Part shown: positions 3,108-60,656 of the stretch, one piece after another
Layout of the letters: each line of letters opens with the position of its first letter
How positions within the stretch are numbered: the stretch's first letter is position 1
Source of the DNA: a virus
Length of the DNA: 64,000 bases
Reading direction: 5' to 3' (one strand)
IMG/VR virus record: IMGVR_UViG_3300037657_000053
Coordinates: 25,024-89,023 of that record
The notes under the pieces: model-generated
What the model was told of the DNA's origin: nothing
What the model saw: only the letters and a program-made list of their open reading frames with translations
Database searches by the model: none
Program-made: the position numbers and the translations under genes

Positions 3108-3137
3108 GCTGGAAACCCGGGTTTACAAGGTGAAGTC

Positions 3138-8327: not shown

Positions 8328-8415
8328 TAGAACCTCGACATTGTAAACCCGGGTTTCCGCGCGAGTGACGCCGAAGACGACTCGGGTTATAGTCGTTTGA
8401 AGGAAGGGGCTTCAA

Positions 8416-11513: not shown

Positions 11514-11553
11514 TAATTGTCTCGTGTAAACCCGGGTTTCCAAGAGGTATGTC

Positions 11554-18382: not shown

Positions 18383-18511
18383 GAGTCGATCCTTTCGTGG
18401 TTGTCCCGATTATCGGACGGTTGATCAACTTCTCGAGTGGTGGAAACCCGGGTTTACACTTGAAATGGTTTGACGATGTGACATGCCTCGCCCATGTGAT
18501 ATGATTCAAGC

Positions 18512-19531: not shown

Positions 19532-19862
19532 AATCGGGCCGCCGGTCCGCTTCTTCTCGAAGGCGTCCCCCTTGCGTCTTCGGTGTGGAAGTGAAATTTC
19601 CGGCGGCCCGATTGGTCTCCCCCCTAACAACCCCCCTCTATTCTCTTTCTAAGTTATAAACAACAGATTCTTAGATCTAAGAATCTAAGAGAATAATCAA
19701 ATGTATAACTAAGAGGGTGTGACTCACGGTTGTCCTCGCTCAAAGAACCCTTCGGGTTCTTTTCGCTGCGGAAACCGAGTCACACCCTACGCGCACGCGC
19801 GCGAGGCGCGGCGGGGTGCCTCGAGACGAGAGAACACCGGAAAGTTGGAAACCCGGGTTTCC
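19532..19862. other. Candidate replication origin / structured intergenic region
   Basis: 14-bp inverted repeat 19532-19545/19600-19613, AT-rich tract with 22-bp palindrome 19665-19686, UUCG hairpin 19742-19762, CGCG run, 16-bp palindrome; just upstream of the replication genes. Confidence 0.45.
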
Positions 19863-19902
19863 AAGACGATTCGCCTTGTGAGTTCGTGTCCGATAATCAG
19901 GT

Positions 19903-21828: not shown

Positions 21829-22412
21829 TCTCGAGGAAGAAAATCAAACCGGGAACCGCGTCGGTCGTTGCGGTAGTCTTGGAAACCCGGGTTTCCAAAC
21901 CATTACAACTCGGTTTTCAACTCGACGATCTCAGAGAGAACAGGAAGAAGGCGGCGTTTGTTGATGCCTTCTTGAACCACGGGCAGGGGAAGAGACCGAC
22001 GAAGGGTAAGGTCGGGAGGGCGAAGGCGACCCCAATCGAGCTCGCCGTCGCCGAAGCGAAGAGGCGATCTCGTGAGGGCGATTGGTCGGGAGCGAAGGGG
22101 AAGGTATTTGTTGGTTTGTATGCTCTTTGCCATGAGATAGTTTATGGCGACGTTCCTCTTGAGCTCACCGAGAATCAAGAGCTCACGATCGGGGCCCGTA
22201 TGGTGAACCGAGTTCTTCACGACTTCTTCGATGATGATCCCGACGCTCTTGTCGAGTTCATAAAATGGTCGTGGGAAGCCGAGAAGAGGAAAGAGTCGTG
22301 GGCTCTTCGCAACGGGATTAGTCGTCAACGAATGAGAGTGAGACTTCAATTCTCTGCTCGCTTGGTTCAAGATTATCGGACCGAAAAACAGAGAAGTGGA
22401 CGTCGAAGGTGA
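21825..22412 (+). CDS. Hypothetical protein (possible replication accessory)
   Basis: ATGA overlap; directly upstream of DnaB; contains a 16-bp palindrome in frame. Confidence 0.55.
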   Translation: MISRKKIKPGTASVVAVVLETRVSKPLQLGFQLDDLRENRKKAAFVDAFLNHGQGKRPTKGKVGRAKATPIELAVAEAKRRSREGDWSGAKGKVFVGLYALCHEIVYGDVPLELTENQELTIGARMVNRVLHDFFDDDPDALVEFIKWSWEAEKRKESWALRNGISRQRMRVRLQFSARLVQDYRTEKQRSGRRR

Positions 22413-25587: not shown

Positions 25588-27609
25588 ATGTCAACTGTCC
25601 CCGCTACTGCTGAAGATCTTCTCGCCGGTCTCAATGCCGAGCAGAGAGAAGTCGTCGAGTTTTTCACAGGGGCCGCTCTCGTCGTCGCGGTTGCGGGTTC
25701 GGGCAAGACCCGCGCTCTCGTTCATCGGATCGCTTATCTGATTAGAGAGCGCAATGTGAATCCCGGCGAGATTCTTGCGGTCACCTTCTCGAAGAAGGCG
25801 GCCGAAGAGATGAACGAGCGGCTCCGGTCGCTCGGGGTCTACGATTGCCGAGTTGGAACGTGGCATTCGTTGTGCTGGGAGATCATTCGGAAAGAATGCC
25901 CGGAGTATCAAACTGAATGGGAGCTCGACACGAAGGATCGATTCCGCGTCGTCGTCAAGACCGCTATCGGTTGGCAGGGGATGAAGTGGCAGGGTGCCGA
26001 TCTGCAAACGATTCTTTCCTTCATCGGGATTTGTAAGAGTCGGCTCGCCGAACCGGGAACCCCCGAAGCCTTCGCGATCGCTCAAGAGCTCTTCGACTCG
26101 AACCCGTGCGGGAAGAACGATCCGCACCTTCTGAGCGAAGCCTATTTCAGATCTCAAGAGGGGGCCGAGCAACGTCGGATCTTGACCTTCGACGATATGC
26201 TCGTGATCGCCTATCGCCTTCTGTGCGACGAAGATGTGAGGCTTCGTTGGTCCGGTCGCTTCAATTTCATGCTTCAAGACGAGGCGCAAGACGAGAACAT
26301 GGCTCAGGTCGCGATTGCTGAGAAGCTCGCTCGCGATCACGGGAACTATATGTGCGTTGGCGATCCGGCTCAGTCGATCTATGGGTTCCGTGGTTCCGTT
26401 CCCTCGAAGCTTCTCGCCTTCGAGATCGAATGGAACGCTCGCGTGATCCGAATGAGTAAAAATTACCGTTCGGTGGACGCGATTCTCGGCGCGGCGAATG
26501 GGGTGATCCGGGCGATGGACCCGACGACTCATCTCGGGGTCATGATGGAGGGCTGTAGGGGCGACACGACTGAGATCAACGTGATCGAGCTCGAAGATAT
26601 GGACGAAGAGGGGCGGGCGATTGTTGACGAAATGAAGGCTCGTCATGAGTCGGGCGCCGAGTGGTGCGATATGGCCGTTCTCTATCGCACGAACGCACAA
26701 TCTCGTGGTCCGGAAGAATTTCTCATTGCTAACCGCGTTCCCTATGTGGTGATCGGCGGGACGAATTTCTACAACCGGAAAGAGGTCAAAGACCTTCTTT
26801 CTTATCTTCGCGTCGCGGCCGACCGTGCGAATGAAGCCGACTTCAAGCGGTGCATCAATACTCCCTTCAGATATCTCGGGAAAGCCACCGTCGATCATTT
26901 CGTTGGGGATCGTCGTCCCCGCGAGAATTGGACGGCTTCGGTTCGCCGCGTCGCCGATTCGGGTCGTGGGATTCAGTACCGACAGAAGACGGCCGCCTAT
27001 GAGTGGGCCGGTCTCATTGACTCGATCGCTCAGTCGATGATGATCCGTGAAAAGGCGCGTCTCGACTTCGAGACCCGTCTCATTCTCGAAGACTCCGAAC
27101 CCGATGCGGTTCGCCCACGCATCCGAGATCACCTTCCCGCCGCGATTCTTGAGAGGGTGATCAAAGAGACTGACTTCGTGAAGTATCTCACTCGAGACGA
27201 GGGCGCCGAGACGGTCGAGAATAACCGCGTGAGTAACGTTCGCGAGCTCGTGCGGGCCGCCGAACGGTTCACGACGGTACATGAGCTTCTCGACTATATC
27301 GACGAGACCGTTCGGGCGGCAGAAGAGGCGTCGAAGGATCACGACGCGAACCGCGTAACGCTCTGCTCGCTTCATAGGTCGAAGGGTCTCGAGTGGAAGT
27401 CGGTTTGGATCGTCGGTGCGAACGAGAAGATTCTGCCTCACGGTCGCGCGACTGATATCGAGGAAGAGCGCCGCCTTTTTTATGTTGGCGTGACTCGCGC
27501 TATGAATGAACTTACCATCTCTCGGGTAAGAATTGCGGCATTCGGTGCGCGAGTGATCGGGCTCGAACCGTCTCGCTTCCTTGCCGAAGCCGGTCTCGAG
27601 GTGCTTTAG
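25588..27609 (+). CDS. uvrD: UvrD/PcrA SF1 helicase
   Basis: LNAEQ, AVAGSGKT, DEAQD, VGDPAQSIYGFRG, NYRS, SKGLEW, EERRLFYVGVTRA; ATG 25588 with RBS AAAGGTG. Confidence 0.95.
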   Translation: MSTVPATAEDLLAGLNAEQREVVEFFTGAALVVAVAGSGKTRALVHRIAYLIRERNVNPGEILAVTFSKKAAEEMNERLRSLGVYDCRVGTWHSLCWEIIRKECPEYQTEWELDTKDRFRVVVKTAIGWQGMKWQGADLQTILSFIGICKSRLAEPGTPEAFAIAQELFDSNPCGKNDPHLLSEAYFRSQEGAEQRRILTFDDMLVIAYRLLCDEDVRLRWSGRFNFMLQDEAQDENMAQVAIAEKLARDHGNYMCVGDPAQSIYGFRGSVPSKLLAFEIEWNARVIRMSKNYRSVDAILGAANGVIRAMDPTTHLGVMMEGCRGDTTEINVIELEDMDEEGRAIVDEMKARHESGAEWCDMAVLYRTNAQSRGPEEFLIANRVPYVVIGGTNFYNRKEVKDLLSYLRVAADRANEADFKRCINTPFRYLGKATVDHFVGDRRPRENWTASVRRVADSGRGIQYRQKTAAYEWAGLIDSIAQSMMIREKARLDFETRLILEDSEPDAVRPRIRDHLPAAILERVIKETDFVKYLTRDEGAETVENNRVSNVRELVRAAERFTTVHELLDYIDETVRAAEEASKDHDANRVTLCSLHRSKGLEWKSVWIVGANEKILPHGRATDIEEERRLFYVGVTRAMNELTISRVRIAAFGARVIGLEPSRFLAEAGLEVL

Positions 27610-28205
27610 TGGGTCGCTTTGAATCCGACCTTCTCGGGCTCCGTTCTGGTGAGCTCTCTTTCGAGATCTTCACCAGGCGGAACCGGGAACGGTTCGCGAA
27701 GTGGGCATCCTATTTCATTGACCGTTACCGTCCACATGGGCTCGATATCGACGATCTCGTTCAAGACGGGTTGATCGAGGCATGGCGAGCCGTCGACGGT
27801 TGGGAAGAAAGACTCGGAGTTTCGATTCAACGCCGAGTCGAATACAAGGTCGGTGAGCGTATGGATCGAGAGGTGAAGCGAGCTCTCGGGTGGCCGCGAC
27901 GCGACCGAGACAAGCCGGCTCAACAAGTTTTCGCTCCTATGGCGATCGAATGTGCTGTTTCGTCAGCGATAGGAGTCGAGAAGAGGATCGAGCTCGCCGC
28001 CGTCGTTTCAACGCTTTCGTGTCCTCTTGAACGCGACGTAACGATCGGGATTGGGATGGGGGCTTCGATTCGGGCGGTTGCTGCGTATCTCTATTCTGAC
28101 CCCAGAAAACGACTGTGGTACGAATTCGATTCGGGAGATCATGCCGTTCGATGCGTTCGGGCGGCCGTCAAAAAGGTAACGAAAACGTTGGAGAAAGCAC
28201 CATAG
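27609..28205 (+). CDS. Phage sigma70-family factor
   Basis: Region 2-like LDIDDLVQDGLIEAWRAVDGW; degenerate region 4-like LERDVTIG...SIRAVAAYL. Confidence 0.65.
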   Translation: MGRFESDLLGLRSGELSFEIFTRRNRERFAKWASYFIDRYRPHGLDIDDLVQDGLIEAWRAVDGWEERLGVSIQRRVEYKVGERMDREVKRALGWPRRDRDKPAQQVFAPMAIECAVSSAIGVEKRIELAAVVSTLSCPLERDVTIGIGMGASIRAVAAYLYSDPRKRLWYEFDSGDHAVRCVRAAVKKVTKTLEKAP

Positions 28206-28336
28206 GCCGATCGATCTGGTTTGGAAACCCGGGTTTCCAAGAAGAAAAAAGTTGACGGTCTCATAAAAAAGTTGAAAGCTAGTCCGATAATCATAAGGAA
28301 GCCGAAAGGGCGAAAGCCCGGGGAGAGAGAAAAAAA

Positions 28337-29677
28337 ATGCCTCTGAAGAATGAAGACGTCGAAATCAACGCCGATGCGATCATGTCGGTCGCCGGAACCC
28401 TCGAGATCGAGCTTTCGAGCAACGATCCCGACACCATCGTCGACGAGATGAGGGCGGCCTTTGCCATTCGTCTCGAGGGGATTCCAGAGGATCAATGGGT
28501 CAAGTGCGAAGTGTGCGGCGAGGTGACGGACAACGATCCTCGGATCACCTTCTGTCCCTTCTGCGGCGATGAGGGCGAAGAGGAGCTCGAGGTGGAGGGC
28601 GAGGAAGACGAGGAAGATGAGGGAGACGAAGTGATCGACGGTGCCGATTACGATGATTCCCCCGACCCCGAGGAAGCTCCGACCGTGGATCTCGACGCCG
28701 ATGATCCGATCCAGGTCGAGATTCCCGAGGCGCCCACCGAGAAGGCGTCTTCCGAGCCCGAGAAGGCCACGAGTGGTGGCAAGGGTGGCAAGGGTGGCAA
28801 GGGTGGCAAGGGTGGCAAGGGTGGCAAGGCCACGGCGAAGGGCAAGAACGAACTCCCTGCCGACAAGCCTCCGACGAAGCAGGGTGCTCCTGCGAAGAAG
28901 CGGGGTGCTCCGAAGAAGGACGCTGAGAACGAGACGGCGATCATCCCTGACGAGAAGCGGGCCGAAATGCTCGCCGAGCTCACGACCGAGAAAAAGAAGA
29001 TCGAGGAGGGGCAAAAGTCGATGCTCACCTCGGGCTATGATCTCGGCGAGAGCTTGCGACGGGTATATACGGGAGAACTCTGGAGAGCGGAGGGCCATAA
29101 GGACTGGCGGGTTTTCTGCGCGTCGATCGGGATCTCCCATACGCTCGCCTACAACCTCATGAAGATTGTCGATCAATTCTCGAGAGACGACTTCATGAAG
29201 GTCGGACAGAAGAAGCTTTCGCTCATCGCTCGAGCCGAGCCCGAGGATCAGCCGGCTCTGCTCGAAGAGGCGAAGAAGGGGAAGTCTGCTCGACAGATCG
29301 ACGCCGAGGTGAAGGCGGGCAAGGGCAAGGGCAAGGGCAAGGGCAAGGGCAAGGGCAAGGGTGAGGCGCCGAATCCGAAGGGAGTCGAGGGCGGTAGCGT
29401 CGGACGCCCGAAGATCGAGGATCAGACGATCACTCTTCTCGGCAAGGTCGGAGGCAAGGCGAAGACCTATGCTTTCCGGTCGCGGAAGGATTCTTCGGAA
29501 GTGGCCGAGTGGGCCCCCGACACCTACGTCGAGATCCCGATTTCCGAGACGGTCGTTCAATATATCGTGTTGAAGACCGACAAGACCGGAAAGCCGGTCG
29601 GGCTAACGACCGCATTCCGCAAGGTCGAGCCGGGCGAGAAGTCGACCGAGAACCCCGCCGAAGATTCCGTCGAGTAG
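28337..29677 (+). CDS. Zn-ribbon / low-complexity protein with ParB-like HTH DNA-binding region
   Basis: CEVC-CPFC, acidic tract, (GGK)6, GISHTLAYNLMKI HTH-like, LSLIARAEPEDQPALLEEAKKGKSARQIDAEVK, (GK)7. Confidence 0.6.
   Translation: MPLKNEDVEINADAIMSVAGTLEIELSSNDPDTIVDEMRAAFAIRLEGIPEDQWVKCEVCGEVTDNDPRITFCPFCGDEGEEELEVEGEEDEEDEGDEVIDGADYDDSPDPEEAPTVDLDADDPIQVEIPEAPTEKASSEPEKATSGGKGGKGGKGGKGGKGGKATAKGKNELPADKPPTKQGAPAKKRGAPKKDAENETAIIPDEKRAEMLAELTTEKKKIEEGQKSMLTSGYDLGESLRRVYTGELWRAEGHKDWRVFCASIGISHTLAYNLMKIVDQFSRDDFMKVGQKKLSLIARAEPEDQPALLEEAKKGKSARQIDAEVKAGKGKGKGKGKGKGKGEAPNPKGVEGGSVGRPKIEDQTITLLGKVGGKAKTYAFRSRKDSSEVAEWAPDTYVEIPISETVVQYIVLKTDKTGKPVGLTTAFRKVEPGEKSTENPAEDSVE
28775..28828 (+). 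repeat. Tandem repeat (GGTGGCAAG)x6
   Basis: Read directly; encodes GGK repeats. Confidence 0.95.
29318..29359 (+). repeat. Tandem repeat (GGCAAG)x7
   Basis: Read directly; encodes GK repeats. Confidence 0.95.
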
Positions 29678-29754
29678 TCTCTTCTCTTCTCTTCACTTCT
29701 CTTCTGAAATCTTCACACTTTGACCGATAATCAAAGGGAACGAAAGGTTTTCCT

Positions 29755-32442
29755 TTGACGACTAAATTCGTTTCCGCTTGGACGGAAAAAAACAAGACAT
29801 ATCTCGTTGAAAGAATCAATGAAGACACTGTGAAGATTCGAGCGGTTCCCGCTCGCTTCTCGTTCTTCGTGACAGGTCTCGACGAATATGATCGGATGGC
29901 TCTCGGGCGTGATCCGGGGGTGATCGGCGTGATCGATCAAGGTCGATACACTCGGGTCAATTGTCGAAATCATTGGACGAGGAAGGAACTTGTAGAAGTT
30001 CTCGAAGAAGCGATTGTTCGGAACGAGTCGGGGGCGAAGATTCTCGAGGCCGACGTGTCACCTCTTCGACGGCTCTTGAGCGATGTTCCGAATCTCGAGA
30101 TCGATCCCGAACCGAATGTTGTTTTCCTCGATCTTGAGACTGACTCGCGGGCGACATTTTCCGAAGCGACACGGGGCGAAGCTCGTCTTCTCTCGTTCGC
30201 GGTTTGTGACGCGGCCGGGCGGGCTTCCTCGGGCCTTCTCGCTGCCGATACTGACGAAGCCGAGCGTTCCCTTTGGGGCGAGTTTTTCGATGTTCTGAGG
30301 GGCTATGACTGCGTTCTCGCGTGGTATGGATCGGGCTTCGATTTTCTCGTGATACAGAATCGATCCGTTCGGCTTGGAGTGACTCTCAACGGCCGAGAGA
30401 TTCAATGGCACAGATGGACGTGGTTGGATCATCTTGAGCTCTTCATGAAATATAACAAGCTCGGAACGGGAGAGGAAAAGACTTCATACGCTCTCGATCA
30501 CGTCGCGCAATATCTACTTGGTGAAGGGAAGGGGAAGCTCGCCTTCGATAGCTCGAAGACATGGGAAGCTTGGGCGGCGGGCGGCGAGGAACGCGAGAGA
30601 CTTCTTCGATACAATGAGCAGGATGCCGCTCTTCTTCCGAGAATCGAAGAGAAGACCGGCTTCCTCGCTCTTCACTTGGCGGTCTGTCAGATTTGCCGAG
30701 TTTTTCCAGATACCGAATCGCTCAATGCGACTATTCAGGGCGACGGATTTCTTTTACGACTAGGGGAGGAACACGGCATTCGTTGGCCGACTAAGAAGCC
30801 GGTCGACGATGAAGCGGTTTATGAGAAATTCAAGGGCGCTTATGTAATGGAACCCGGGCGTTATGGTGCGATTCCGACCGTTCATGTTGCTGATTTCGCC
30901 GGTCTATATCCATCGATCATGCGAACGTGGAATATGAGTCTTGAGACGAAGGTGAATCTTCGGGGTGTTTATGACGACATTCCCGAAGATGTAGAACTCG
31001 AACCCCGAGTCAAATCGGGTTTGTGCCAACTCCCGAACCGGGCGACGTGGTTCAAGACGACCGAAGAGGGGATGTTCAAGATTGCTCTCGATCGATTGGT
31101 TTACAAGAGGGCCGAGTATACGGCTCTTATGAAGAAGGAAACCCCCGGCTCGAAACAACACGAGAAGTTCAAGCGTCTCTCGCAAGCTTTCAAGACGGTC
31201 GCGAATAGTTTCTATGGGATCGTCGGCTCGCCGTTCTCGAGGTTCTTCGACGTCGAGATCGCGGAAGGTGTCACTCAAACCGGGAAGTGGCTTCTTCAAA
31301 ACGTGATTCGCGAGTCACAAGCGGTCGGCTTCGATCCATTCTATGGTGACACCGATTCGGTGTTCGTTGCCGGCTGCACGCCCGAAGAGTTTCGAGCTCT
31401 CGTTGATGCTCTCAACGAGTCATGGTCGAAGCGGCTCGAACCGTGGGGGATCGGTAGTCACTTCATCGATCTCGACTTCGAGAAGACTTTCTCTCGAATT
31501 ATCATGATCACGGCGAAGCGATATGTCGGGAAGTTCCTCATGTACAAGGGCAAGGCGGCCCCCGACGACGCGCCCCCCGAGGTGAAGGGACTGGAATTCA
31601 ACCGGGGCGATTCGATCCGTCTTGCCCGGGATTTCCAACGTCAAGTGATTGATCGGTTACTTGAAAGGGACTTGCCTTCGGCGGCCGATATGCGAGATCT
31701 CGTTCTCGATTGGAAGAACCGAGTCTATCGGGGTGAGCTCTCGCTTGAAGATGTTGTGATGAGTCAATCTCTCTCGAAGTCTCTTAGAGAATACTCTGTG
31801 CAGAGCGCGCCGCCTCATGTGCGGGTTGCTCGTCTCATGGTCGAGAGAGGGGAACAGATCGGCGAAGGGGCTCGAGTTCGATTTCTCGTGATTCCCGGCG
31901 ATGGCTCAAAGCTCAATCCAATTCCGGCTTCTGATCCAGGCGCTCTCGAGAGGATCGATCGGATCTATTATTGGGGGAGGAAGGTCTATCCGCCCGTTCA
32001 ACGTGTTCTGGAGAAGGTCTATCCGAAAGAGCAGTGGGCCGAGACGACCAAAGAGAAAAGAAGCCGCGAATTTGAAGCCAAGGGTCAAGGCACTCTCTTT
32101 GATACGATAGGGAGCCATTCCACCGTGACACCACGAAGGAGGAAGAAGAGGCGAGTCGATGGGCTCGAGATCACGATTGTTGAAGGATCGCCTTTTACAG
32201 ATGGGGGCGCCGAGAAGGTTCGTCGAGAGCGTCTTCTCAAGGCGATTCACACGGCGATCGATGCGAACCCCGGTGAGGTTCCTGTGACCGTCGTTGTCGC
32301 GTTCAAGAGCTATACCGAAGGCAAGGAAGAGACGGTGAAGGTTTACATCGACACGAAGACGACGATCGCCGATACACCCGCGAGTCGGGCCGCTCTCATG
32401 AGAATTCTCTCGAAGCCCGATCGGTTCGAGTTTTTGTCATAG
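29755..32442 (+). CDS. DNA polymerase family B with 3'-5' exonuclease and C-terminal extension
   Basis: DLETD, GFDF, YNEQD exonuclease motifs; DFAGLYPS, KTVANSFYG, YGDTDS, KRY. Confidence 0.95.
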   Translation: MTTKFVSAWTEKNKTYLVERINEDTVKIRAVPARFSFFVTGLDEYDRMALGRDPGVIGVIDQGRYTRVNCRNHWTRKELVEVLEEAIVRNESGAKILEADVSPLRRLLSDVPNLEIDPEPNVVFLDLETDSRATFSEATRGEARLLSFAVCDAAGRASSGLLAADTDEAERSLWGEFFDVLRGYDCVLAWYGSGFDFLVIQNRSVRLGVTLNGREIQWHRWTWLDHLELFMKYNKLGTGEEKTSYALDHVAQYLLGEGKGKLAFDSSKTWEAWAAGGEERERLLRYNEQDAALLPRIEEKTGFLALHLAVCQICRVFPDTESLNATIQGDGFLLRLGEEHGIRWPTKKPVDDEAVYEKFKGAYVMEPGRYGAIPTVHVADFAGLYPSIMRTWNMSLETKVNLRGVYDDIPEDVELEPRVKSGLCQLPNRATWFKTTEEGMFKIALDRLVYKRAEYTALMKKETPGSKQHEKFKRLSQAFKTVANSFYGIVGSPFSRFFDVEIAEGVTQTGKWLLQNVIRESQAVGFDPFYGDTDSVFVAGCTPEEFRALVDALNESWSKRLEPWGIGSHFIDLDFEKTFSRIIMITAKRYVGKFLMYKGKAAPDDAPPEVKGLEFNRGDSIRLARDFQRQVIDRLLERDLPSAADMRDLVLDWKNRVYRGELSLEDVVMSQSLSKSLREYSVQSAPPHVRVARLMVERGEQIGEGARVRFLVIPGDGSKLNPIPASDPGALERIDRIYYWGRKVYPPVQRVLEKVYPKEQWAETTKEKRSREFEAKGQGTLFDTIGSHSTVTPRRRKKRRVDGLEITIVEGSPFTDGGAEKVRRERLLKAIHTAIDANPGEVPVTVVVAFKSYTEGKEETVKVYIDTKTTIADTPASRAALMRILSKPDRFEFLS

Positions 32443-32487
32443 AAATGTGTTCGTCCGTCCGATAATCGAGACAAGGGAGAAAAGTTC

Positions 32488-33084
32488 ATGGCAACGAGAC
32501 GCAAAATCGGTTCCGGTGAAGAGAAGGACGTGCTCGAGACGAAGCCGTTTCAGGGTTCAAGCGAGCAGGACAATAACTCGGTTTCCTACGCTGAACCGGG
32601 GATCGCTTGGGGCAATGTGATTCGAGACGTTCTCAGGATCGATAATCCGGCTTGGCTCGCGAAGCGATTGCGAGGCGAGCTTACGTTGAGCGACGAGGGG
32701 CGTTCTTCCTACGGCTCCCTTCTCGCTGCTCTCGACAGGTCGGCGAGGAATTACGACGACGCTTACATGCTCTATCGCGGGGCGAAGGTCGAGGAATCTC
32801 GATTCGCTCTCGAGCTCCGAGAGCGATTCGAGGTCATGAAGGAACACGCATCGTCTGAGTTGATGGACGAATACAAGGAGAAGAAGCGGCGGTCTCCGAC
32901 GACCGAGGACATAGAAGATCGAATGATGTCGAGTTGGCCCGATGAATACAGGCACCTCAGAACAAAGGAAGCCGAACTCCATGCGGCGGTGAGAAGTTTG
33001 GAAACGCTTGCGAAGGCGTGGTCGTCCAGGTGCGCCGATCTTCGAGCAATGGCCGATATGTTCACGGCCAGAAAGAACGGGTGA
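32488..33084 (+). CDS. Helical protein, possible recombination mediator (UvsY-like)
   Basis: Coiled-coil character, PTTEDIEDRM; lies between polymerase and SSB/RecA. Confidence 0.45.
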   Translation: MATRRKIGSGEEKDVLETKPFQGSSEQDNNSVSYAEPGIAWGNVIRDVLRIDNPAWLAKRLRGELTLSDEGRSSYGSLLAALDRSARNYDDAYMLYRGAKVEESRFALELRERFEVMKEHASSELMDEYKEKKRRSPTTEDIEDRMMSSWPDEYRHLRTKEAELHAAVRSLETLAKAWSSRCADLRAMADMFTARKNG

Positions 33085-33088
33085 AGAC

Positions 33089-34438
33089 ATGGGTCTCGGA
33101 TTGGCGAGCTTTCTCAACCACAACGAAGGGTCTGCTCGAAAATTTCTCAAGGACTGGAAGAAGAAGGGATCGATCGTGGTGTGGCTCTATACCCGAGCAG
33201 ATATCGCTTGGGCTTCGTGGAATCATTCCTTTGTAGCATATGGAACCTATAAGAACGACAAGGACGAAGAGGTCGAGTGTCTCAAGTATCCCCGCTTTGT
33301 CTCGCCCGATCCCGAGGTGGTCCATCAGAATCAATACTTCCGCAACGAGGGTGACGATTCGATGCAAATACCACCGTCGCTCGATCCATTCCTTCGCCTT
33401 CGGGAATGGCTCCGACTCGATTGCGATTTGCCTCTCGATACCGTCATCTTCCGTTGGGAGAACCCCCACCCGAAGCCCGGGAAGAGCCCGATCATCGAAT
33501 GGCAACGTGGGCACCTTGCCCGGTTGGTCGATCGTGGGCGGTACAACTTCGGTGCGTCGCTCGACACGAAACTTGAGTATTTCTTCGTCGTTGTCGACAA
33601 CGAGAAACCACAAGATGGGGCCCAGATCGTTCGGGGAACCAAGCTTCTCGGAGACGTGATGAAGAAGGAGATCGGACATCAGATCGAGAGCGATGGTGAG
33701 AAGGGCAATCCGCTGATCCATCCGTATGCGTTCAAGTGGGTCTATGACGATTCGGCCGGTTCTCCGATGGATTCATACCGCGCGTTTCGCTATAACGCGG
33801 CGGAACTCACACCGCAGATCCGCGAAGCGATCACGAGCTCCGAGTATCCCGATCCGTCGCAAGATTGCAAACCTCGGGCGGGCGACAAGGCGAAGATCCG
33901 GGCTGCCATGGAAGCTGCCGCACAAGTCGATCTCCCATGGGATCGACTCTTCGTTCCCGAGTGGGAAGACGAAGAACCCGGCGATTTCAACTATGGTGCG
34001 AATGCGGGCTCTCAGGTGGTCTCTCAGGGCTCGGGAACCTCGGGGGGTGCCACGGGGCGGCCGGCTTCTCAGACGGGCTCTCAGGGGCCGTCTCGCGAAC
34101 GGGAGAGCCATGCGGTGAGCGGCGCGCAATCTGCCCGTCGGAAGAAGGTCAACAAGCCCGAGCCCCCGCCTCCGAATGTCGAGATGATCAAGTGCGATGA
34201 CTGCGACACGATGCTTCGACCGGATCAAGCGAAGTGTCCGAATTGTGGAGCGGAATACGAGGTCGATTCTGAACCCACCGTTTCCTCCAATTCGGTGCAA
34301 CAGGAAACCCGGGTTTCCAACGGAACGACCGGAACGACCGGAACGACCGACGTCACATGCTGGTCTTGTGGTGGTCCCGTCGTGAAGGGAAGTTGCACGA
34401 ATTGCGGGCTCGAAGCAGGAGACGAAATTCCGTTCTAG
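33089..34438 (+). CDS. Putative single-stranded DNA-binding protein with zinc ribbons
   Basis: C-terminal GDEIPF SSB-type tip; four CxxC motifs; next to RecA; ATG 33089. Confidence 0.6.
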   Translation: MGLGLASFLNHNEGSARKFLKDWKKKGSIVVWLYTRADIAWASWNHSFVAYGTYKNDKDEEVECLKYPRFVSPDPEVVHQNQYFRNEGDDSMQIPPSLDPFLRLREWLRLDCDLPLDTVIFRWENPHPKPGKSPIIEWQRGHLARLVDRGRYNFGASLDTKLEYFFVVVDNEKPQDGAQIVRGTKLLGDVMKKEIGHQIESDGEKGNPLIHPYAFKWVYDDSAGSPMDSYRAFRYNAAELTPQIREAITSSEYPDPSQDCKPRAGDKAKIRAAMEAAAQVDLPWDRLFVPEWEDEEPGDFNYGANAGSQVVSQGSGTSGGATGRPASQTGSQGPSRERESHAVSGAQSARRKKVNKPEPPPPNVEMIKCDDCDTMLRPDQAKCPNCGAEYEVDSEPTVSSNSVQQETRVSNGTTGTTGTTDVTCWSCGGPVVKGSCTNCGLEAGDEIPF

Positions 34439-34541
34439 ATGCCGTTACGTCTTACTCTCCTACTTTTCTTTCTTTGATTCTTCCTTGATTCTTCCTCACA
34501 AAACACGTTCCTCTCGTCCGATAATCAATCGAGAGGTGACA

Positions 34542-35788: not shown

Positions 35789-36058
35789 ATGTTCAACTAT
35801 ATCAAGCCGCGACCGTGGGGGGCTCTTGACTTCCTCGGTTCCATTCTTCTCGGGTTCTTGCTCTTTGTGCTCTTCATTGCGGGGGGCTTGCGTCTTCTCA
35901 ACGTGATCAGCGAGCTCGAAGAGGGCGCGTCCGAGTTCGCCTATCAAGCGGCCGTTCTGATCGTATGGTGTCTCGTCTTCAGAGGAATCTCGAATTCCTT
36001 CGTCCGTGGATTCAGACGACGTTGGCGAGAGACTCATGAGGAAGGGTGGTTCAGATGA
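35789..36058 (+). CDS. Small 2-TM membrane protein
   Basis: Two hydrophobic helices; coupled to neighbours. Confidence 0.55.
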   Translation: MFNYIKPRPWGALDFLGSILLGFLLFVLFIAGGLRLLNVISELEEGASEFAYQAAVLIVWCLVFRGISNSFVRGFRRRWRETHEEGWFR

Positions 36059-36807
36059 CAAGGATACTTCTAACGGCCGATTGGCACATCGACGCGGTAA
36101 CGGGCGGTCTTCCTCGAGTTGATGAGATCGATCCCTTCGTAGAAGAGCTCAAGGAAGCGGTCATTCGGGAGAAAGTTTCTCATTTGATTCACATGGGAGA
36201 TTTTTTTGACCCGGGCGGTATGCTCTGCTCGTTCTATACCGAGAAGGTGATCATGATTGTGAGCGACCTTCTCGCCGTCGATCGGCTCGACACGATCACC
36301 CTTCTCGCCGGCAACCACGACGTGATCGAGAGCTCTCGAGGAACCACAACGATCAGCCCGGTTGCCGCCGCATTCTCGGGCGAGCCGAGGGTCCAAGTCT
36401 TCGAGCAACCTTCGAGGTTCGTTCTCACGACTCAACCCGATCAGATCATTCGGGGGCTCGCCCTTCCCTACGTTGCCCGTGCGGCCTATCGAGAGGAAGC
36501 CTTTCCCGAAGCCGTGAAGGGGCTCTCAGAGCTTGGAGACTACCCCCTGATAGTCGTCGGTCACATGACCGTTCCGGGGGCTGTGCTCGGGTCTGAGAGC
36601 TCGGATATGCCACGGGGACGAGAGATCGATCTTCCGGTCTTCGAGCTCTCGAAGCTTCGTCCGGTTTTCATCGCGAACGGTCACTATCATCGAGCACAAG
36701 TCACCGAATCGAACGTCGTGATTCCGGGCTCGCCTTTCCGCTTCACCTTCGGCGAAAGGAACGACAAGAAAAAGGGATTCACGATTGTCGAGATCGTTCA
36801 CAAGTAA
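36055..36807 (+). CDS. sbcD: SbcD/Mre11 nuclease, metallophosphoesterase domain only
   Basis: TADWH, GDFFD, GNHD, GHYH, PGSPFRFTFGE; ends right after KGFTIVEI. Confidence 0.85.
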   Translation: MTRILLTADWHIDAVTGGLPRVDEIDPFVEELKEAVIREKVSHLIHMGDFFDPGGMLCSFYTEKVIMIVSDLLAVDRLDTITLLAGNHDVIESSRGTTTISPVAAAFSGEPRVQVFEQPSRFVLTTQPDQIIRGLALPYVARAAYREEAFPEAVKGLSELGDYPLIVVGHMTVPGAVLGSESSDMPRGREIDLPVFELSKLRPVFIANGHYHRAQVTESNVVIPGSPFRFTFGERNDKKKGFTIVEIVHK

Positions 36808-36838
36808 ACCCGGGTTTCCAAGCTCGAAAGGGGAACAT

Positions 36839-43267: not shown

Positions 43268-44096
43268 AGAAGTTGAAGAGGTGAGTGAATTCAGTCGTGC
43301 TGTATGGGATGAAGTGGCGCAGCGGCTTTCGCGCACGGGGTTTTCTGGTCTCGTCTTTCGGGTTGTATCGGGTCCGAACATGCCATTTGCGGTTGAAGCG
43401 GGTGGCGCGGTTCAATCGGCTCGGGCCGTTGTAAACCCGGATTTCCGAGAGAAGCTCACGAAGACGGTTCGTGATGTGATCGTTTCGCGTTCGCCCGGAT
43501 CGTTGTGTGTTCTTTCGAGGGGTCCATCTTGGCCCGCCTTTACGATCGGACTTTCGCAGGAGATCGAGTTGATGGAAGATTATGCTCCGATGATTCATCG
43601 CCCTTACATTCCGGAAGGTCTTTCCCAACGCGATACTCCCGAGCCCCCCGAGCCCCCCGAGCTCGAAGAGCTTGTGAAGGTGACGAACGATCCGCCGCCC
43701 GTCTTCCTTCCCGATCCAGGGGCCCCGTCCCGGCTCGAGACGGCCCCTGAGATGCGAGGAGAGCTCACCCCCCTACCACCGACACCCTCGAGCTTCGCGT
43801 GCGTCCACGAGCCTTCAGAGGGCTCTCTTCGCAGGATCGCCCGAGAGCTCGGCGATTTGGTGGTCGAGAAGAACCGAGCCTATGGAAACTCGGTTGCCAC
43901 GTCGGCGGTGGCGATGGCTCTTCTCTATCCCGAGGGGGTTCGACCGGATCAATTGAGGGATATGCTGACGTTGGTTCGGATCTGGGATAAGATGAAGAGG
44001 ATCGCGACGAAGAAGGACGCTTTTGGGGAAAGCCCGTTCCGCGATATCGTTGGCTATGCTCTGCTCGGAGCGGAGAACGATGAAGCGGATAAGTAG
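43260..44096 (+). CDS. Protein with C-terminal DUF1599/Nmad1-like domain
   Basis: EKNRAYGNS...RIWDKMKRI...DIVGYALL. Confidence 0.65.
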   Translation: MSEEVEEVSEFSRAVWDEVAQRLSRTGFSGLVFRVVSGPNMPFAVEAGGAVQSARAVVNPDFREKLTKTVRDVIVSRSPGSLCVLSRGPSWPAFTIGLSQEIELMEDYAPMIHRPYIPEGLSQRDTPEPPEPPELEELVKVTNDPPPVFLPDPGAPSRLETAPEMRGELTPLPPTPSSFACVHEPSEGSLRRIARELGDLVVEKNRAYGNSVATSAVAMALLYPEGVRPDQLRDMLTLVRIWDKMKRIATKKDAFGESPFRDIVGYALLGAENDEADK

Positions 44097-47261: not shown

Positions 47262-47300
47262 TTTGGCTTGGAAACCCGGGTTTCCAAAAGGTTGGTTGGT

Positions 47301-50138: not shown

Positions 50139-50452
50139 AGACTCGGAGGAAGGTTCGCCCGGTCGAATGTGAGGGGTTCCTCTTCACCGTTCTCGAGGGC
50201 GAGATCAAGCGAGAGGTTCAACTCATGGGATCGGGTGGCTTGCTCGGGGCGGGCTCGCTCGCCACGATTCGGGGCAACCGGTTCACGATCGAGCGGGCGA
50301 CCGAAAGGGTTCTCAGCCGAGCTCGAGAATGGTTCGAGCTCGAGGGGCGGTTGAGAGAGTGGTTGGGCGATGGTTACGATCCATCCGACCGAATCCGCGA
50401 ATTCGTTCCCGACGAGATCCTCTCGGTCCGACCGCTTCTCTTCGATTTGTAA
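50135..50452 (+). CDS. Hypothetical protein
   Basis: GTGA overlap with TerL stop; its TAA lies in a palindrome. Confidence 0.55.
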   Translation: MKTRRKVRPVECEGFLFTVLEGEIKREVQLMGSGGLLGAGSLATIRGNRFTIERATERVLSRAREWFELEGRLREWLGDGYDPSDRIREFVPDEILSVRPLLFDL

Positions 50453-50483
50453 ACCCGGGTTTACAAGCCCGACCGAGCCCCCC

Positions 50484-50548
50484 GCCCCTGAGCCCCTGAG
50501 CCCCCTGAGCCCCTGAGAGCCCCTGAGAGCCCCTGAGAGCCCCTCGAG
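50484..50548 (+). repeat. Imperfect tandem array of GCCCCTGA(GA) units
   Basis: Read directly; about 7 units in non-coding DNA. Confidence 0.85.
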
Positions 50549-51163: not shown

Positions 51164-51490
51164 ATGAGAATTTGGTTTCCCATTCCGCCTTTGTGTTTAG
51201 ATCGTCAACGGCTTCTCGGCGAACATCGGGAATTGCATGCGATCTGGTCTATCCTTTGTCAGAATCGCGCGGGATATCGGAATCATCCCGAGGTGAAGCG
51301 TTGGATTGATCGTCTCGATCGTCTTTATGAAAGGCATGAACATTTGGTTTCAGAGATGACGAGACGGGGATACTACCATAAATCATTATTGATTCCGATA
51401 GGATATACGAGTGAGTGGCCGAATACTTGGGAGACGATCGAGATGATGCGATTGAAATTGGCGGAAAAACAAGGGGTTGAGCCGAAGTAA
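51164..51490 (+). CDS. Pyrimidine-dimer DNA glycosylase / endonuclease V family protein
   Basis: LDRQRLLGEHRELHAI...YRNHPEVKRW...EMTRRGYYH. Confidence 0.75.
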   Translation: MRIWFPIPPLCLDRQRLLGEHRELHAIWSILCQNRAGYRNHPEVKRWIDRLDRLYERHEHLVSEMTRRGYYHKSLLIPIGYTSEWPNTWETIEMMRLKLAEKQGVEPK

Positions 51491-51544
51491 ACCCGGGTTT
51501 CCAAGGGGGGCGAAAAAAAAGATCGCCCCCCTCGATCTTTTTTC

Positions 51545-51610
51545 TTGACCGAGCCCCCTTCGATAGTGCATAACAGAATCAATGGGGCGACGGAGCCCGA
51601 AAGGAAGGGA
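51545..51610 (+). promoter_or_regulatory. Early promoter cassette, copy 1
   Basis: TTGACC-18-CATAAC, GGGC-GACGGA-GCCC hairpin, purine-rich RBS. Confidence 0.8.
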
Positions 51611-51616
51611 GACGAC

Positions 51617-51862
51617 GTGGACAGGAATTATCGGATCGAGAACAAGGGAACGAGCATCACGGGCAATCGGATTTATCGCATGTACCCGAGCGATGCTCAC
51701 CCGACGCTTCGTTCTCACCTTGATATCGGAGACGTGATCCGTCGGACGGCGGGATGTTGGCAGGCGCGGCCGGCCGTACGGGGCGAGGAATGCCCCGAAT
51801 TCACGTTCCGTCATTTCACGACGCGACGCGAAGCGGTCGAGTATCTGATCTCTCGGGTTTAG
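51617..51862 (+). CDS. Small early protein
   Basis: GTG directly after cassette RBS. Confidence 0.6.
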   Translation: MDRNYRIENKGTSITGNRIYRMYPSDAHPTLRSHLDIGDVIRRTAGCWQARPAVRGEECPEFTFRHFTTRREAVEYLISRV

Positions 51863-51924: not shown

Positions 51925-52653
51925 ATGACTGAGATAGCGGCAAGATATCTCTCGGCAACGCCTCCATTGGAGGGTATCGAGATGGTTGGTGTGGGTGTCA
52001 GATTGACGGCGACGTCTATCTGTTCGAGGTATGCGCTCTTTGGCGTGCCGGCTAGCCGGTTCGATGTTCTTATTGAGGAAGGGCAACCTTCTTTCGGATG
52101 GGCGGTTGAGGTGGTAAGTAAGTCTGGTCGCTATGACGGTCGGACGCGCGATCGATTGACGTTCTGCCATCGGCGAGGTGGGATGCTTCTACATTCGGAA
52201 TCGGGCGTTTGCGCTTGCAGTATCGTTCGCCGTCGTCAAACAACGGTCTCGCTCGTATCCGAATTCGGCCCGGTGTGGTCGGCGACTTACGACACGTTGC
52301 GGTGGCAACTCGATCCGGCCGGGGGGTTGATTCGGATTGTCGGTTGGCATCTTACCAGATATTTCAAGATGCTCGTTGTCGATCATTCCGCGACAGATCT
52401 GGCAGGCGAGATCGAGGCGATGAATCCGAATTGGCGCGCGATGACTCTATCTCAAGTCAATCGGTTGGTCTCTCGGCATTTGTATCGTTTGGCGCGCGAT
52501 ATGGGGTGGAGAAAGCTCACATTGCGCGAGAGGCTTCGACTCGGGCTTGATGAGGCGTCGCCGCAATGGCAACGTGAGAGCGATCTTGGTGTGTTGTATA
52601 GACGCACCGGGTGCGGCGACTTCACGCACCGGTCGGCTCGGGGTGAATCATGA
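51925..52653 (+). CDS. Hypothetical protein
   Basis: Long ORF whose stop overlaps the clamp start; start uncertain. Confidence 0.5.
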   Translation: MTEIAARYLSATPPLEGIEMVGVGVRLTATSICSRYALFGVPASRFDVLIEEGQPSFGWAVEVVSKSGRYDGRTRDRLTFCHRRGGMLLHSESGVCACSIVRRRQTTVSLVSEFGPVWSATYDTLRWQLDPAGGLIRIVGWHLTRYFKMLVVDHSATDLAGEIEAMNPNWRAMTLSQVNRLVSRHLYRLARDMGWRKLTLRERLRLGLDEASPQWQRESDLGVLYRRTGCGDFTHRSARGES

Positions 52654-53939
52654 AACGCATGCGGGCAAAGACACGGATCGCGACCCTCTCGGATTTGTCG
52701 CGACCGATCGTCATTCTCTCGAGGATCGCGAATGCTCGAACCAACGACGAGCGAATCACTGTCTCGAGTCGGGGCAGTGAGCTCGTTCTTTCGGCTTCGA
52801 TCGGGAGGGAATCTTATCGGTTCGATCAAACCGGACCGGTAGCCGGGAAGGTTTGGTTTGAATACCGGGCCGATGCCGAGGGGGCGATCTCTCAAGAGCT
52901 CGGGATCGAGCCCCGTCTCTTCAAGGTCGCGGCCGGTTCGGCAAAGGGGCTCACTCTCGAGGTGAGGAACGAGCCAACCGGCGAGGGGTCGCAAGTTCGG
53001 ATCAAGACGACCCTCGAGATCACCGACGTCGATGGAGTGACGACAGAATGCCTCGCCTTGGGCTCAGATGGGGTCGAGAAGGCCCGAAGCTTCGCAGGGA
53101 ATCCTTGGGGCCGGGCGACAGTGGGCGAGCTCGTGGGGCCTTTCTCGTGGGCATGTCGGGCAATCTCGGATGACGACGGCCGGCCGCACCTTGCCGCTCT
53201 CGCTCTTATCGGCTCGCGAGTGATCGCGACCGATGGGCATAGGCTACACGTCGGGCCGCTCCCTTCGGGCCTTCATGTCGAAATCGAGTCGTTGATTCCT
53301 TCGATCGTTGCCCGAGCTCTTCTCGAGATCTTCAAGTCGAGTTCGCCGTGGGATGAAGTCGTGATCGAGGGGAACGGTGAGGGTCTCATGATCGATGTCG
53401 GGTCTCATTGGTCGATGGCGGTTCGCTTTCCGACTTTGAGCGACAACGGAACCGAAAGGGTCGTTCGCTTCCCATCCTATACCAAGGTGATTCCGAATCC
53501 GTGGGATCGGCCGGGGGGCATGGTAGTGGAGTGTGACTCGGGGCGGCTCTTGAAGGCGATGAAAAAGTCTCAAGGTGTTTTGAAGGGTAACTTCGTGAAC
53601 GGTGTGGTTATCCGTCCCGAGCCGAATCAGGTGAGGATCACGGCCGAGAACACCGACAATAATATTCGGGTCGAGATGAAGGTTCCGGCCGAGACCAGGC
53701 TCGGAAACCCGGGTTTCCTCTACTATGCGAACGTTGACTATGTGATCGACGCCTTGCTCGATTCGGGCGACGTTGAGATCTATATCGGGCCCGAAGCGTT
53801 CGAGGGAACCTATAAGACGGCCGGGGCGAACGCTTGGGTCGACGAAGAAGATAGGAAGGGGCTCGGGTATACCACCGACCCAACCGTCTTTTCTCACGGT
53901 GAGGATACCTTCGCCGTCGTTATGCCGATGAGACTTTGA
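52650..53939 (+). CDS. dnaN: DNA polymerase sliding clamp (beta subunit-like)
   Basis: ISDDDGRPHL...IATDGHRL, FPSYTKVIP, NVDYVIDAL, VVMPMRL C-terminus. Confidence 0.85.
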   Translation: MKRMRAKTRIATLSDLSRPIVILSRIANARTNDERITVSSRGSELVLSASIGRESYRFDQTGPVAGKVWFEYRADAEGAISQELGIEPRLFKVAAGSAKGLTLEVRNEPTGEGSQVRIKTTLEITDVDGVTTECLALGSDGVEKARSFAGNPWGRATVGELVGPFSWACRAISDDDGRPHLAALALIGSRVIATDGHRLHVGPLPSGLHVEIESLIPSIVARALLEIFKSSSPWDEVVIEGNGEGLMIDVGSHWSMAVRFPTLSDNGTERVVRFPSYTKVIPNPWDRPGGMVVECDSGRLLKAMKKSQGVLKGNFVNGVVIRPEPNQVRITAENTDNNIRVEMKVPAETRLGNPGFLYYANVDYVIDALLDSGDVEIYIGPEAFEGTYKTAGANAWVDEEDRKGLGYTTDPTVFSHGEDTFAVVMPMRL

Positions 53940-57620: not shown

Positions 57621-57627
57621 CTTCCCG

Positions 57628-58182
57628 ATGAAATTTTCCCGAGAGACGTTTCTTGTTGAGCAATGGATTGCCGAAGCTTGCGAGCTAGGGGAAGCTCCCG
57701 AGTTGATCGAGCGGATCGAGCTCGAATGGTCGAGGCGTCTCGTTCTCACGCTCGGAAAAGCGAATCGGCTAAATTGGACGATCAAACTTGCCGAAAAGGC
57801 TTGGTTTCTCATTTCGCTCGACGAACGAAGAGAGACAGTCTTTCACGAGGTAGCGCATTTGATAGCCCTACACGAAGGGGGCCTGAAGGCGTGGGATCAC
57901 GGGCCGACTTGGCGCCGAATAATGGCCAAGATCGGATATCCCCGGGCGAATGCGTGTCACGATTTGATCGAACAACTCTCGACGATCCGACGGAAGAATG
58001 TTCGTGTGATCGCTCGTTGTCAGTGTGATTCGGCCGGCGAAGTGTTCGGAGTTCGGCGAGCCGATGGAACGCATCTCATCACGCGGTCAATGGAGGCGAA
58101 GATCAAGGCGAACCCGTCGATCTGCCGTTGTCGGTTCTGTCGATGTGCGATCGTTCCGACCGGTGAGATCGTTCGCGTGTAA
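57628..58182 (+). CDS. SprT-like zinc metalloprotease
   Basis: ETVFHEVAHL...HGPTWRRIM, C-terminal Cys cluster; ATG 57628 with GGAGG. Confidence 0.85.
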   Translation: MKFSRETFLVEQWIAEACELGEAPELIERIELEWSRRLVLTLGKANRLNWTIKLAEKAWFLISLDERRETVFHEVAHLIALHEGGLKAWDHGPTWRRIMAKIGYPRANACHDLIEQLSTIRRKNVRVIARCQCDSAGEVFGVRRADGTHLITRSMEAKIKANPSICRCRFCRCAIVPTGEIVRV

Positions 58183-58203
58183 ACCCGGGTTTCCAAGCCC
58201 CTC

Positions 58204-60569: not shown

Positions 60570-60656
60570 TCTCGTCTCGCCCGGGGGGATTTGGAAACCC
60601 GGGTTTCCAAAAAAAAATGTTCTTTCGTCCGATAATCGAAGCGAAGGGAGAGTGAA

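Follow-up and report, generated by a model that had tools for sequence, protein, structure and literature searches.

A predicted ParB-fold DNA-binding protein without a CTPase domain, encoded next to PolB, co-occurs with phage-specific palindrome arrays

A modular protein encoded upstream of PolB

We analysed a 64,000-nucleotide stretch of phage DNA (the window), which comprises bases 25024-89023 of a single virus contig of 89,023 bp and 55.5% G+C (IMG/VR record IMGVR_UViG_3300037657_000053; estimated completeness 83%). We focus on a 446-amino-acid (aa) open reading frame (ORF) directly upstream of the gene for a family-B DNA polymerase (PolB), and on a palindrome that occurs ahead of this ORF and throughout the genome (Table 1; positions are those of the window unless a locus is named). 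The phage is a myovirus, as judged from PHROG matches to portal, sheath, tube, baseplate and tape-measure genes, and the structural genes are followed, on the same strand, by a replication block with helicases, a DnaB-like helicase, a primase, an HNH nuclease, a UvrD-like helicase, a sigma-like gene, the 446-aa ORF, PolB, a UvsX-like recombinase, ThyX and an SbcC-like gene. We find that the central domain of the 446-aa protein is predicted to adopt a ParB-type helix-turn-helix (HTH) fold, and that palindrome arrays are found in phages that encode this domain.

Foldseek comparison of the AlphaFold2 model with the Protein Data Bank (PDB), a check that the initial annotation had proposed for residues ~200-330, returns only ParB/Spo0J/Noc DNA-binding domains among the ten best rows, with probabilities of 0.97-1.00 and several of the structures solved on parS or NBS DNA. 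The alignment covers residues 207-331, includes the segment (LSLIARAEPEDQ...SARQIDAEVK) aligned with ParB in the initial annotation, and identifies a ParB-fold HTH DNA-binding domain. Among the structure leads of the ESM Atlas are clusters of HTH_ParB and of DUF3102. DUF3102 appears solely as ESM Atlas and BFVD leads; PF11300 has no match on the 446-aa protein, and the one match among 129 relatives scores 20.5 bits against a cut-off of 24.4. The Foldseek E-values of the same ten rows are only 0.05-0.26, with none at or below 0.001; Pfam HTH_ParB (PF17762) has no match on the protein or the contig at E<=10, nor on five relatives at E<=1; and no ParB chain turns up when PDB sequences are searched with the family profile (E<=10). 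ParB_N has no match on the 446-aa protein at E<=10, nor on the contig or the five relatives, the controls of the HTH_ParB scans being positive in 14 of 14 genomes, and the GxxRxxA box of the CTPase, noted as lacking at the outset, is not present anywhere in the 446 aa. An N-terminal CTP-binding ParB/Srx-like domain is not found, residues 1-80 forming a helical and Zn-ribbon module, and a search of the contig for a ParA-type ATPase (AAA_31) reaches 16.3 bits (cut-off 27), inside the DnaB-like helicase. The ParB likeness claimed in the initial annotation thus stands at the level of fold and falls at the level of Pfam membership by sequence, for HTH_ParB and ParB_N alike; because there is a fold match but no sequence match and no GxxRxxA, we file the protein under the ParB DNA-binding fold and not as a ParB. 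By its model, the central domain belongs in structure with the HTH DNA-binding domains of ParB/Spo0J/Noc, and the CTPase clamp was either lost from the protein or never part of it.

The Zn ribbon, acidic tract, (GGK)6, HTH-like segment and (GK)7 described initially are all present in the ORF. The AlphaFold2 model, built from a 100-sequence alignment, is confident over residues 1-80, ~201-333 and ~371-430 (block means of the predicted local distance difference test, pLDDT, of 86-97, with a dip to 78 at residues 221-230) and disordered between them; pLDDT is below 50 over most of residues 88-198, consistent with the charged disordered blocks being real. Residues 81-150 contain 30 Asp or Glu among 70, (GGK)6 occupies residues 147-164 and (GK)7 residues 328-341. 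The Zn ribbon (CxxC...CPFC; CPFCGDEG) is built on Cys57, Cys60, Cys73 and Cys76, all four invariant in 100 sequences, and the family profile run against PDB sequences detects the SAP domain of Ku70 (1jjr) at E 4.2e-6 and a rubrerythrin ribbon at E 0.014; Pfam SAP has no match on the 446-aa protein, and the N-terminal module gives only generic Zn-ribbon leads, below 0.9, in the ESM Atlas. The recognition helix is presumably S267-V278 (SHTLAYNLMKIV). The C-terminal beta domain matches no solved fold and might serve in dimerisation.

A word search finds four relatives of 44-48% identity, and a profile made from them retrieves 1113 representative clusters at E<=1e-3, of which 511 remain at a threshold of 1e-10 and 72 at 1e-30, and whose members are mostly 300-450 aa long and alike in layout. 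Pfam finds only sub-threshold Zn-ribbon matches on the 446-aa protein and, in a scan of 129 of 150 listed relatives, one AT-hook above the cut-off and no other domain family, with one histone-H1-like and one weak DUF3102 match below it; some relatives have histone-H1-like or AT-hook linkers. With 1113 clusters and no Pfam domain family above the cut-off, the family is therefore large and unnamed, and phrog_1733, which matches residues 219-314 at E 4.5e-6, has no assigned function. A phmmer search of the protein core against PDB sequences gives nothing meaningful, and the search for stand-alone short forms of residues 205-446 finds none. The 446-aa protein has no tblastn match, and hence no cultured relative, among 50,697 GenBank phage records, in which PolB finds two remote Salmonella Pol II-like matches only. 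A limited literature search did not find the family or the palindrome array already described.

Palindrome arrays and their co-occurrence with the HTH domain

The palindrome that the initial annotation reported about 100 bp upstream of the start is GGAAACCCGGGTTTCC at 28223-28238, a perfect 16-bp palindrome 99 nucleotides (nt) before the ATG (28337). It had been taken as a feature of the gene's own promoter, a view that gives way to that of a genome-wide array: 23 sites with no more than 2 mismatches are spread over the whole contig, where the 12-bp core AAACCCGGGTTT is found 21 times, the full unit with flanks being TTG(G/T)AAACCCGGGTTT(C/A)CAA. In the window alone, where 0.47 matches at <=3 mismatches are expected, there are 17, a number reached in none of 100 shuffles. 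Sites cover the structural (late) as well as the replication (early) half of the genome at intervals of ~4 kb, and are fairly regular: the coefficient of variation (CV) of their spacing is 0.47, against 0.94 for random placement, and none of 5000 simulations is equally even. In the relative G001 the CV is 0.60 (P 0.01), and two further relatives trend likewise without significance. Twelve of the 23 sites fall outside a crude ORF map that leaves 7.5% of the genome uncovered (P 2e-8); by eye, ~17 of 23 are at gene boundaries, several of them 9-20 nt ahead of a start codon, and about five seem to lie within coding sequence. With 23 sites spread over ~100 gene boundaries, or about one gene in five, the copy ahead of the 446-aa ORF is unremarkable by itself, and since a copy occurs within 300 bp upstream in only 3 of 17 other palindrome-bearing loci, the autoregulation suggested initially is not a conserved trait.

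Homolog searches found five viral contigs, four of which were taken whole, and a search with a 21-sequence alignment returned the same five loci. Anchoring on PolB with an alignment of nine PolBs gave 55 loci (a single PolB query returned none in viral contigs), which were scored for the HTH domain with domain hidden Markov models at a locus scale of ~22 kb. The domain is present in 28 of the 55, always in the ORF just upstream of PolB; this ORF ends within ~0.4 kb of PolB in 27 of them, and the gap is 1.3 kb in the remaining one. Two or more identical perfect 16-bp palindromes are found in 17 of the 28 loci with the domain and in none of the 27 without it, nor in any of 55 shuffled loci (Fisher test, 4e-7, with kinship among the phages ignored). 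Five HTH-bearing contigs that were negative at locus scale (G006-G010) were then scored whole, and four proved positive: G007 with 9 copies and 2 of a variant, G008 with 12 copies, G010 with 9 copies of a 12-mer, and G006 with a near-palindromic 17-mer at 17 places, in both orientations (12 to 7). Eight of nine whole HTH-bearing contigs therefore hold 9-23 copies of their own dyad motif, with 23 in the phage under study (G000) and 9-21 in seven relatives. The motifs are phage-specific, with cores CCCGGG, ATCGAT, CACGTG, GCGC and others: G001 has TGTTCACCCGGGTGAACA 21 times, every copy perfect, G003 has TGTGGCCCCGGGGCCACA at 13 sites, 6 of them perfect, and G005 has TTGTAACCTCGAGGTTACAA at 14 sites.

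The relative G002 has structural and replication proteins that are 40-70% identical to those of G000, and its ortholog, in the same place before PolB, consists of the N-terminal module and an acidic tail only. No repeated palindrome is found in the whole G002 contig, nor is a Pfam ParB HTH; its frequent 12-mers were rejected as a replacement motif, being pentapeptide-repeat coding sequence. In a tblastn profile covering all G000 ORFs, what G001, G003 and G005 have and G002 lacks comes down to three items: the UvrD-like helicase, a minor head protein and, of the 446-aa protein, the HTH part. The sigma-like neighbour is detected in 5 loci only and the UvrD-like helicase is absent from several palindrome-bearing loci, so that both track the palindromes worse than the HTH domain does. 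The co-occurrence in 17 of 28 against 0 of 27 loci, the eight of nine whole contigs and the joint lack of domain and array in G002 bear out, indirectly, the initial proposal that the protein is the best candidate binder.

Table 1. Features of the 446-aa ORF locus and palindrome copies in the window
Feature	Position	Strand	Remarks
Palindrome, 20 bp, perfect, TTGGAAACCCGGGTTTCCAA	28221..28240	.	Core 28223-28238; 1 of 23 genome copies
GTCCGATAATC, promoter-like extended -10 motif	28282..28292	+	Early/middle gene class
GGGC-GAAA-GCCC hairpin	28308..28319	+	Presumed 5' leader, just ahead of ribosome-binding site (RBS) GGGGAGAGAG
Coding sequence, 446 aa, predicted modular DNA-binding protein	28337..29677	+	Large unnamed phage family
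N-terminal module, residues 1-80	28337..28576	+	Two helices (SAP/HeH-like) and Cys4 Zn ribbon; pLDDT 92-97
Acidic disordered tract, residues 81-146	28577..28774	+	
(GGK)6 and Lys/Pro/Ala-rich basic disordered linker, residues 147-204	28775..28948	+	
ParB/Spo0J/Noc-type HTH DNA-binding domain, residues 205-333	28949..29335	+	AlphaFold2 and Foldseek
Basic linker with (GK)7, residues 334-359	29336..29413	+	Low pLDDT; (GK)7 run begins at residue 328
Conserved C-terminal four-stranded beta domain, residues 360-436	29414..29644	+	ITLLxKVGGK...
PolB (family-B DNA polymerase)	29755..32442	+	Directly downstream of 446-aa ORF
Palindrome, 1 mismatch	3111..3126	.	Fills 30-nt gap before tail-protein gene; ends 11 nt before ATG
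Palindrome, 1 mismatch	8343..8358	.	
Palindrome, 1 mismatch	11526..11541	.	12 nt from its end to ATG
Palindrome, 1 mismatch	18442..18457	.	Divergent intergenic region
Palindrome, perfect	19847..19862	.	Upstream of GTCCGATAATC motif and helicase gene
Palindrome, perfect	21881..21896	.	
Palindrome, perfect	34303..34318	.	Probably within 3' part of ORF 33008-34438
Palindrome, 1 mismatch	36804..36819	.	GTAA gives TAA stop of ORF 36046-36807
Palindrome, 2 mismatches	43431..43446	.	Probably within coding region
Palindrome, perfect	47270..47285	.	15 nt from its end to ATG
Palindrome, 2 mismatches	50449..50464	.	Holds TAA stop of ORF 50135-50452
Palindrome, 1 mismatch	51487..51502	.	Holds TAA stop of ORF 51164-51490
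Palindrome, perfect	53703..53718	.	Probably within ORF 52650-53939
Palindrome, 1 mismatch	58179..58194	.	Holds TAA stop of ORF 57571-58182; next ATG 9 nt after its end
Palindrome, perfect	60593..60608	.	22 nt upstream of GTCCGATAATC motif

Between the palindrome and the ATG of the 446-aa ORF lie the motif and the GGGC-GAAA-GCCC hairpin that had been pointed out initially, both as described, and the minimum-free-energy fold of 28299-28345 includes the stem of the latter. CCGATAATC occurs 13 times on the plus and 3 times on the minus strand of the genome, all within window 18-61 kb and none in the structural half. The motif (G)TCCGATAATC recurs over 18409-60640 (e.g., 19889-19899, 29722-29732, 32457-32467 and 34516-34526), 10-45 nt before the RBS or ATG of replication and nucleotide-metabolism genes and with no obvious -35 element; its position suggests that it probably represents an early/middle promoter class.

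Several further features accompany individual palindromes. In the four GTAAAC variants (36804, 50449, 51487 and 58179) the TAA inside the palindrome is the stop codon of the upstream gene, and gene end, palindrome and next RBS fit into 25-40 nt. A composite unit is present in two copies, at 51487-51620 and at the genome start (L001:41-170), in which the palindrome precedes a G+C hairpin with A/T runs (with a T run in the unit whose palindrome is at 51487..51502) and a sigma-70-like, promoter-like TTGACC-N17-CATAAC, and continues into a leader starting AGAATCA..GGGC(A/G)ACGGAGCCCGAA. Short tandem repeats directly follow two palindromes, (GGAACGACC)x3 at 34319-34346 and a CCCCTGAG(AG)-type run at 50465-50545.

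Among the relatives, most palindromes have the form TGT-N11/12-ACA with different inner bases (G001, G003, G005, G006, G007, G008 and the GT variant of G000). parS sites likewise run TGT...ACA, and the G001 half-site TGTTCAC resembles the parS half-site. Thirteen relatives (L058, L059, L064, L065, L067-L070, L078, L080, L082, L084 and L086) carry their own palindrome within or immediately behind the C-terminal linker of PolB, ~2.1-3.4 kb past the PolB start, following a GQG-LF-like motif and in some cases within coding sequence; G000 has none there. G002 (L026) contains one canonical parS-like 16-mer, TGTTTCACGTGGAACA, at ~3710-3725, many pentapeptide-repeat genes and a repeated promoter-like motif, TTACA(C/A)TATAGG. 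A 332-aa family member (L109:9983-10981) lies in a 60% G+C stretch of a 9-Mb Polyangiales chromosome, a metagenome-assembled genome, near a tyrosine integrase and with no PolB; a 14-bp palindrome, GCGCCCCGGGGCGC, occurs 3 times within 2.2 kb just downstream of the gene, and the adjoining interval L109:10988-13132 belongs to the same locus. This homolog and ESM Atlas leads offer Myxococcota as a lead, and only a lead, to the host of these phages.

Elsewhere in the window, two small genes match only Sigma70 region 2 (27609-28205) and only Sigma70 region 4 (56715-57290), respectively, and may encode a split or two-part phage sigma factor; the latter is followed by a 64-aa ribbon-helix-helix gene (57287-57481). 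Both contig ends (63890-64000 and L001:1-60) carry an inverted run, C14...G8, and then a palindrome copy, which may be degenerate; this could reflect either a terminal repeat that is imperfect or a break in the assembly where an element is repeated.

Candidate role and alternative explanations

We propose that the 446-aa protein is the putative binder of the phage's own 18-20-bp palindrome, for which co-occurrence makes it the best candidate. That it serves as a genome-marking or genome-organising factor or a replisome tether, and not as a partition protein or a single-promoter repressor, strikes us as about an even call. Two copies of the protein, one per half-site, would bind each palindrome through the HTH, and ~20 bound sites along the chromosome would carry SAP-like/Zn-ribbon heads together with acidic and basic disordered blocks. 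The HTH and beta domain would then be the address label and the N-terminal head the effector part, perhaps making contact with the replisome. We read the head as the effector because it alone is kept next to PolB in the palindrome-less G002, and place the action on replicating phage DNA because the gene is kept upstream of PolB and because, again, the N-terminal module alone survives in G002.

A different function at the same sites would be that of a KorB-like global transcription regulator or roadblock, timing or insulating phage transcription, which is possible if on balance unlikely. Most sites are indeed at gene boundaries, several of them close to a start codon, four lie 22-47 nt upstream of the promoter-like GTCCGATAATC, including the one before the 446-aa ORF, and two precede the hairpin/T-run and TTGACC-N17-CATAAC unit. 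Start-codon proximity says little, however, as a 20-bp palindrome would land in short intergenic gaps anyway, and most sites have no adjacent promoter-like element, with variable distances to the -10-like motif where there is one. Sites are found in both the late and the early half of the genome, some are intragenic, including the PolB-linker copies of the relatives, and their even spacing is not expected of promoter control. Stoperators, the phage precedent for such sites, are asymmetric and oriented with transcription, whereas the sites here are symmetric and the G006 motif occurs in both orientations. Palindromes as intrinsic terminators were rejected, as no T run follows them, and so were composite promoters with a fixed -10, as nothing is conserved past 20-22 bp in the 21 G001 copies or in the G000 copies; with neither a T run nor a conserved element at a fixed distance, the palindromes are neither of these.

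It is doubtful, in our judgement, that some other factor of phage or host binds the palindromes instead, or that these serve as hairpins in RNA or single-stranded DNA that signal processing, stability or replication, with the 446-aa protein a general or otherwise-targeted DNA-binding accessory of the replisome. The palindromes can form 6-9-bp stems, many would be transcribed between cistrons, and the basic H1-like linkers of relatives would bind DNA unspecifically. All 17 loci with a multi-copy inverted repeat, however, have a repeat that is perfectly palindromic through its centre, in a search that allowed up to 5 free central bases, and in 8 of 16 window sites (<=2 mismatches) the two arms disagree in the G/T at position 2 without compensation. 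A hairpin loop needs no self-complementary centre, and both features speak for a two-fold symmetric protein that recognises the duplex. The window has other DNA binders in the ribbon-helix-helix and Sigma70_r4 proteins, but the palindrome-less G002 retains the Sigma70_r4 protein (58% identity) and the ribbon-helix-helix protein has a homolog in none of four relatives; as given above, the genes that share the distribution of the arrays across G001, G002, G003 and G005 are the minor head protein, the UvrD-like helicase and the HTH part only.

Covariation of site and protein, whose absence would favour a different binder of the palindromes, is not seen for the recognition helix: among 23 phages, half-site distance and recognition-helix distance are uncorrelated (r 0.06, P 0.24; partial -0.03, P 0.62), and the same palindrome goes with quite different helices, as in G000 and L068 (identical 16-mer) and in L032 and L040 (identical 18-mer). 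Site distance correlates with whole-HTH-domain distance (r 0.27, P 0.0008) and, slightly less, with PolB distance (r 0.22, P 0.014); the partial correlation is 0.16 (P 0.05) for the HTH given PolB and 0.06 (P 0.26) for the reverse. The covariation of the whole HTH domain is thus weak support at best for a pairing of protein and site.

The lack of helix covariation counts against the proposed role of the protein as a palindrome-bound organiser, as do the Foldseek E-values and the two profile-level negatives for ParB given above and several limits of the comparison among phages. Eleven of the 28 HTH loci lack a repeated palindrome over their 22 kb, the outcome for G009 is ambiguous (A+T-rich and 58% complete), and the motif of G006 has an odd, slightly asymmetric centre. 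Independent contrasts in the co-occurrence are few: G002 alone is both closely related and domain-less, the domain-less L079 and L085 are distant, the sequences of L063, L074 and L081 stop short upstream of PolB, and the other 21 domain-less loci belong to remote A+T-rich phages. The link to replication, finally, is one of gene order alone.

That the protein is the centromere-binding half of a partition system in a plasmid-like prophage whose centromeres, dispersed like those of phage N15, would be the palindromes, we consider very improbable: the ParB-type domain, the parS-sized palindromes and the family member near an integrase in a bacterial chromosome are set against the sub-threshold ParA score, the missing CTPase domain, a tyrosine integrase not found and no lysogeny genes among the scanned ORFs, these absences not being final as the contig is 83% complete, and at least 20 sites per genome far exceed the needs of partition.

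The organising role can be extended to a broader, more speculative proposal, which we think unlikely as it stands, in which a CTP-independent offshoot of the ParB fold and private, regularly spaced palindromes would together form a self-marking system of viral chromosomes. Anchored at ~20 sites per genome, the protein would gather DNA and replisome into a private replication body by means of the SAP/Zn-ribbon head and of disordered blocks of opposite charge, acidic and basic. If so, such a system would be widespread in uncultured phages, with more than 1000 protein clusters; if the organising role fails, the protein would still be a new kind of global phage regulator. The comparative evidence ties arrays of this type to one large, Pfam-unnamed, PolB-adjacent family that lacks the CTP switch, and offers a testable protein-site pair, with many natural variants of both, for studying the marking and organisation of viral DNA and changes in ParB-type specificity.

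Comparison with known systems

The nearest fold is that of chromosomal ParB/Spo0J/Noc (PDB 6t1f, 1vz0, 4umk and 6y93), at 7-17% identity to the solved chains. Unlike these proteins, the 446-aa protein has no CTPase/Srx-like domain, no GxxRxxA and no Pfam HTH_ParB match, no ParA was detected in its contig, and it has a SAP-like/Zn-ribbon N-terminus and a C-terminal beta domain of unmatched fold. KorB (PDB 1r71 and 8qa8) comes next by fold, with a weaker match than that of chromosomal ParB, and, with its many OB operators on plasmid RK2, is also a near parallel at the level of the system. KorB keeps the CTPase clamp and works with KorA, whereas the 446-aa protein has no CTPase domain (no search was made for a KorA partner) and the element here is a lytic-looking myovirus.

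Dyad-motif arrays in lytic phages have been described with neither binder nor function. According to the report on them (PMC4351075), Cluster O mycobacteriophages such as Corndog, which are not obviously temperate, carry more than 30 copies of an invariant 17-bp dyad motif, many intergenic and some within genes; its authors predicted a dimeric DNA-binding protein, doubted a role as promoters, and knew neither the binder nor the function of the repeat. The phages studied here are like Cluster O in having tens of copies of one phage-specific dyad-symmetric motif across the genome, and differ from it in that the Cluster O motif is 7-N3-7 and the sites of G000 and its relatives are mostly perfect palindromes. 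Corndog gp90 was rejected as a relative, having only a ParB_N domain and an hhalign probability of 0.2 against the family profile. Should the self-marking proposal hold, it could by analogy account for the Cluster O repeats and other orphan dyad-repeat arrays. Cluster A stoperators, described in part in the same report (PMC4351075), also come in tens of copies in short intergenic gaps and are bound by one phage protein; they are asymmetric, oriented with transcription and serve prophage silencing, whereas the G000 sites are symmetric and lie in a phage that shows no lysogeny genes.

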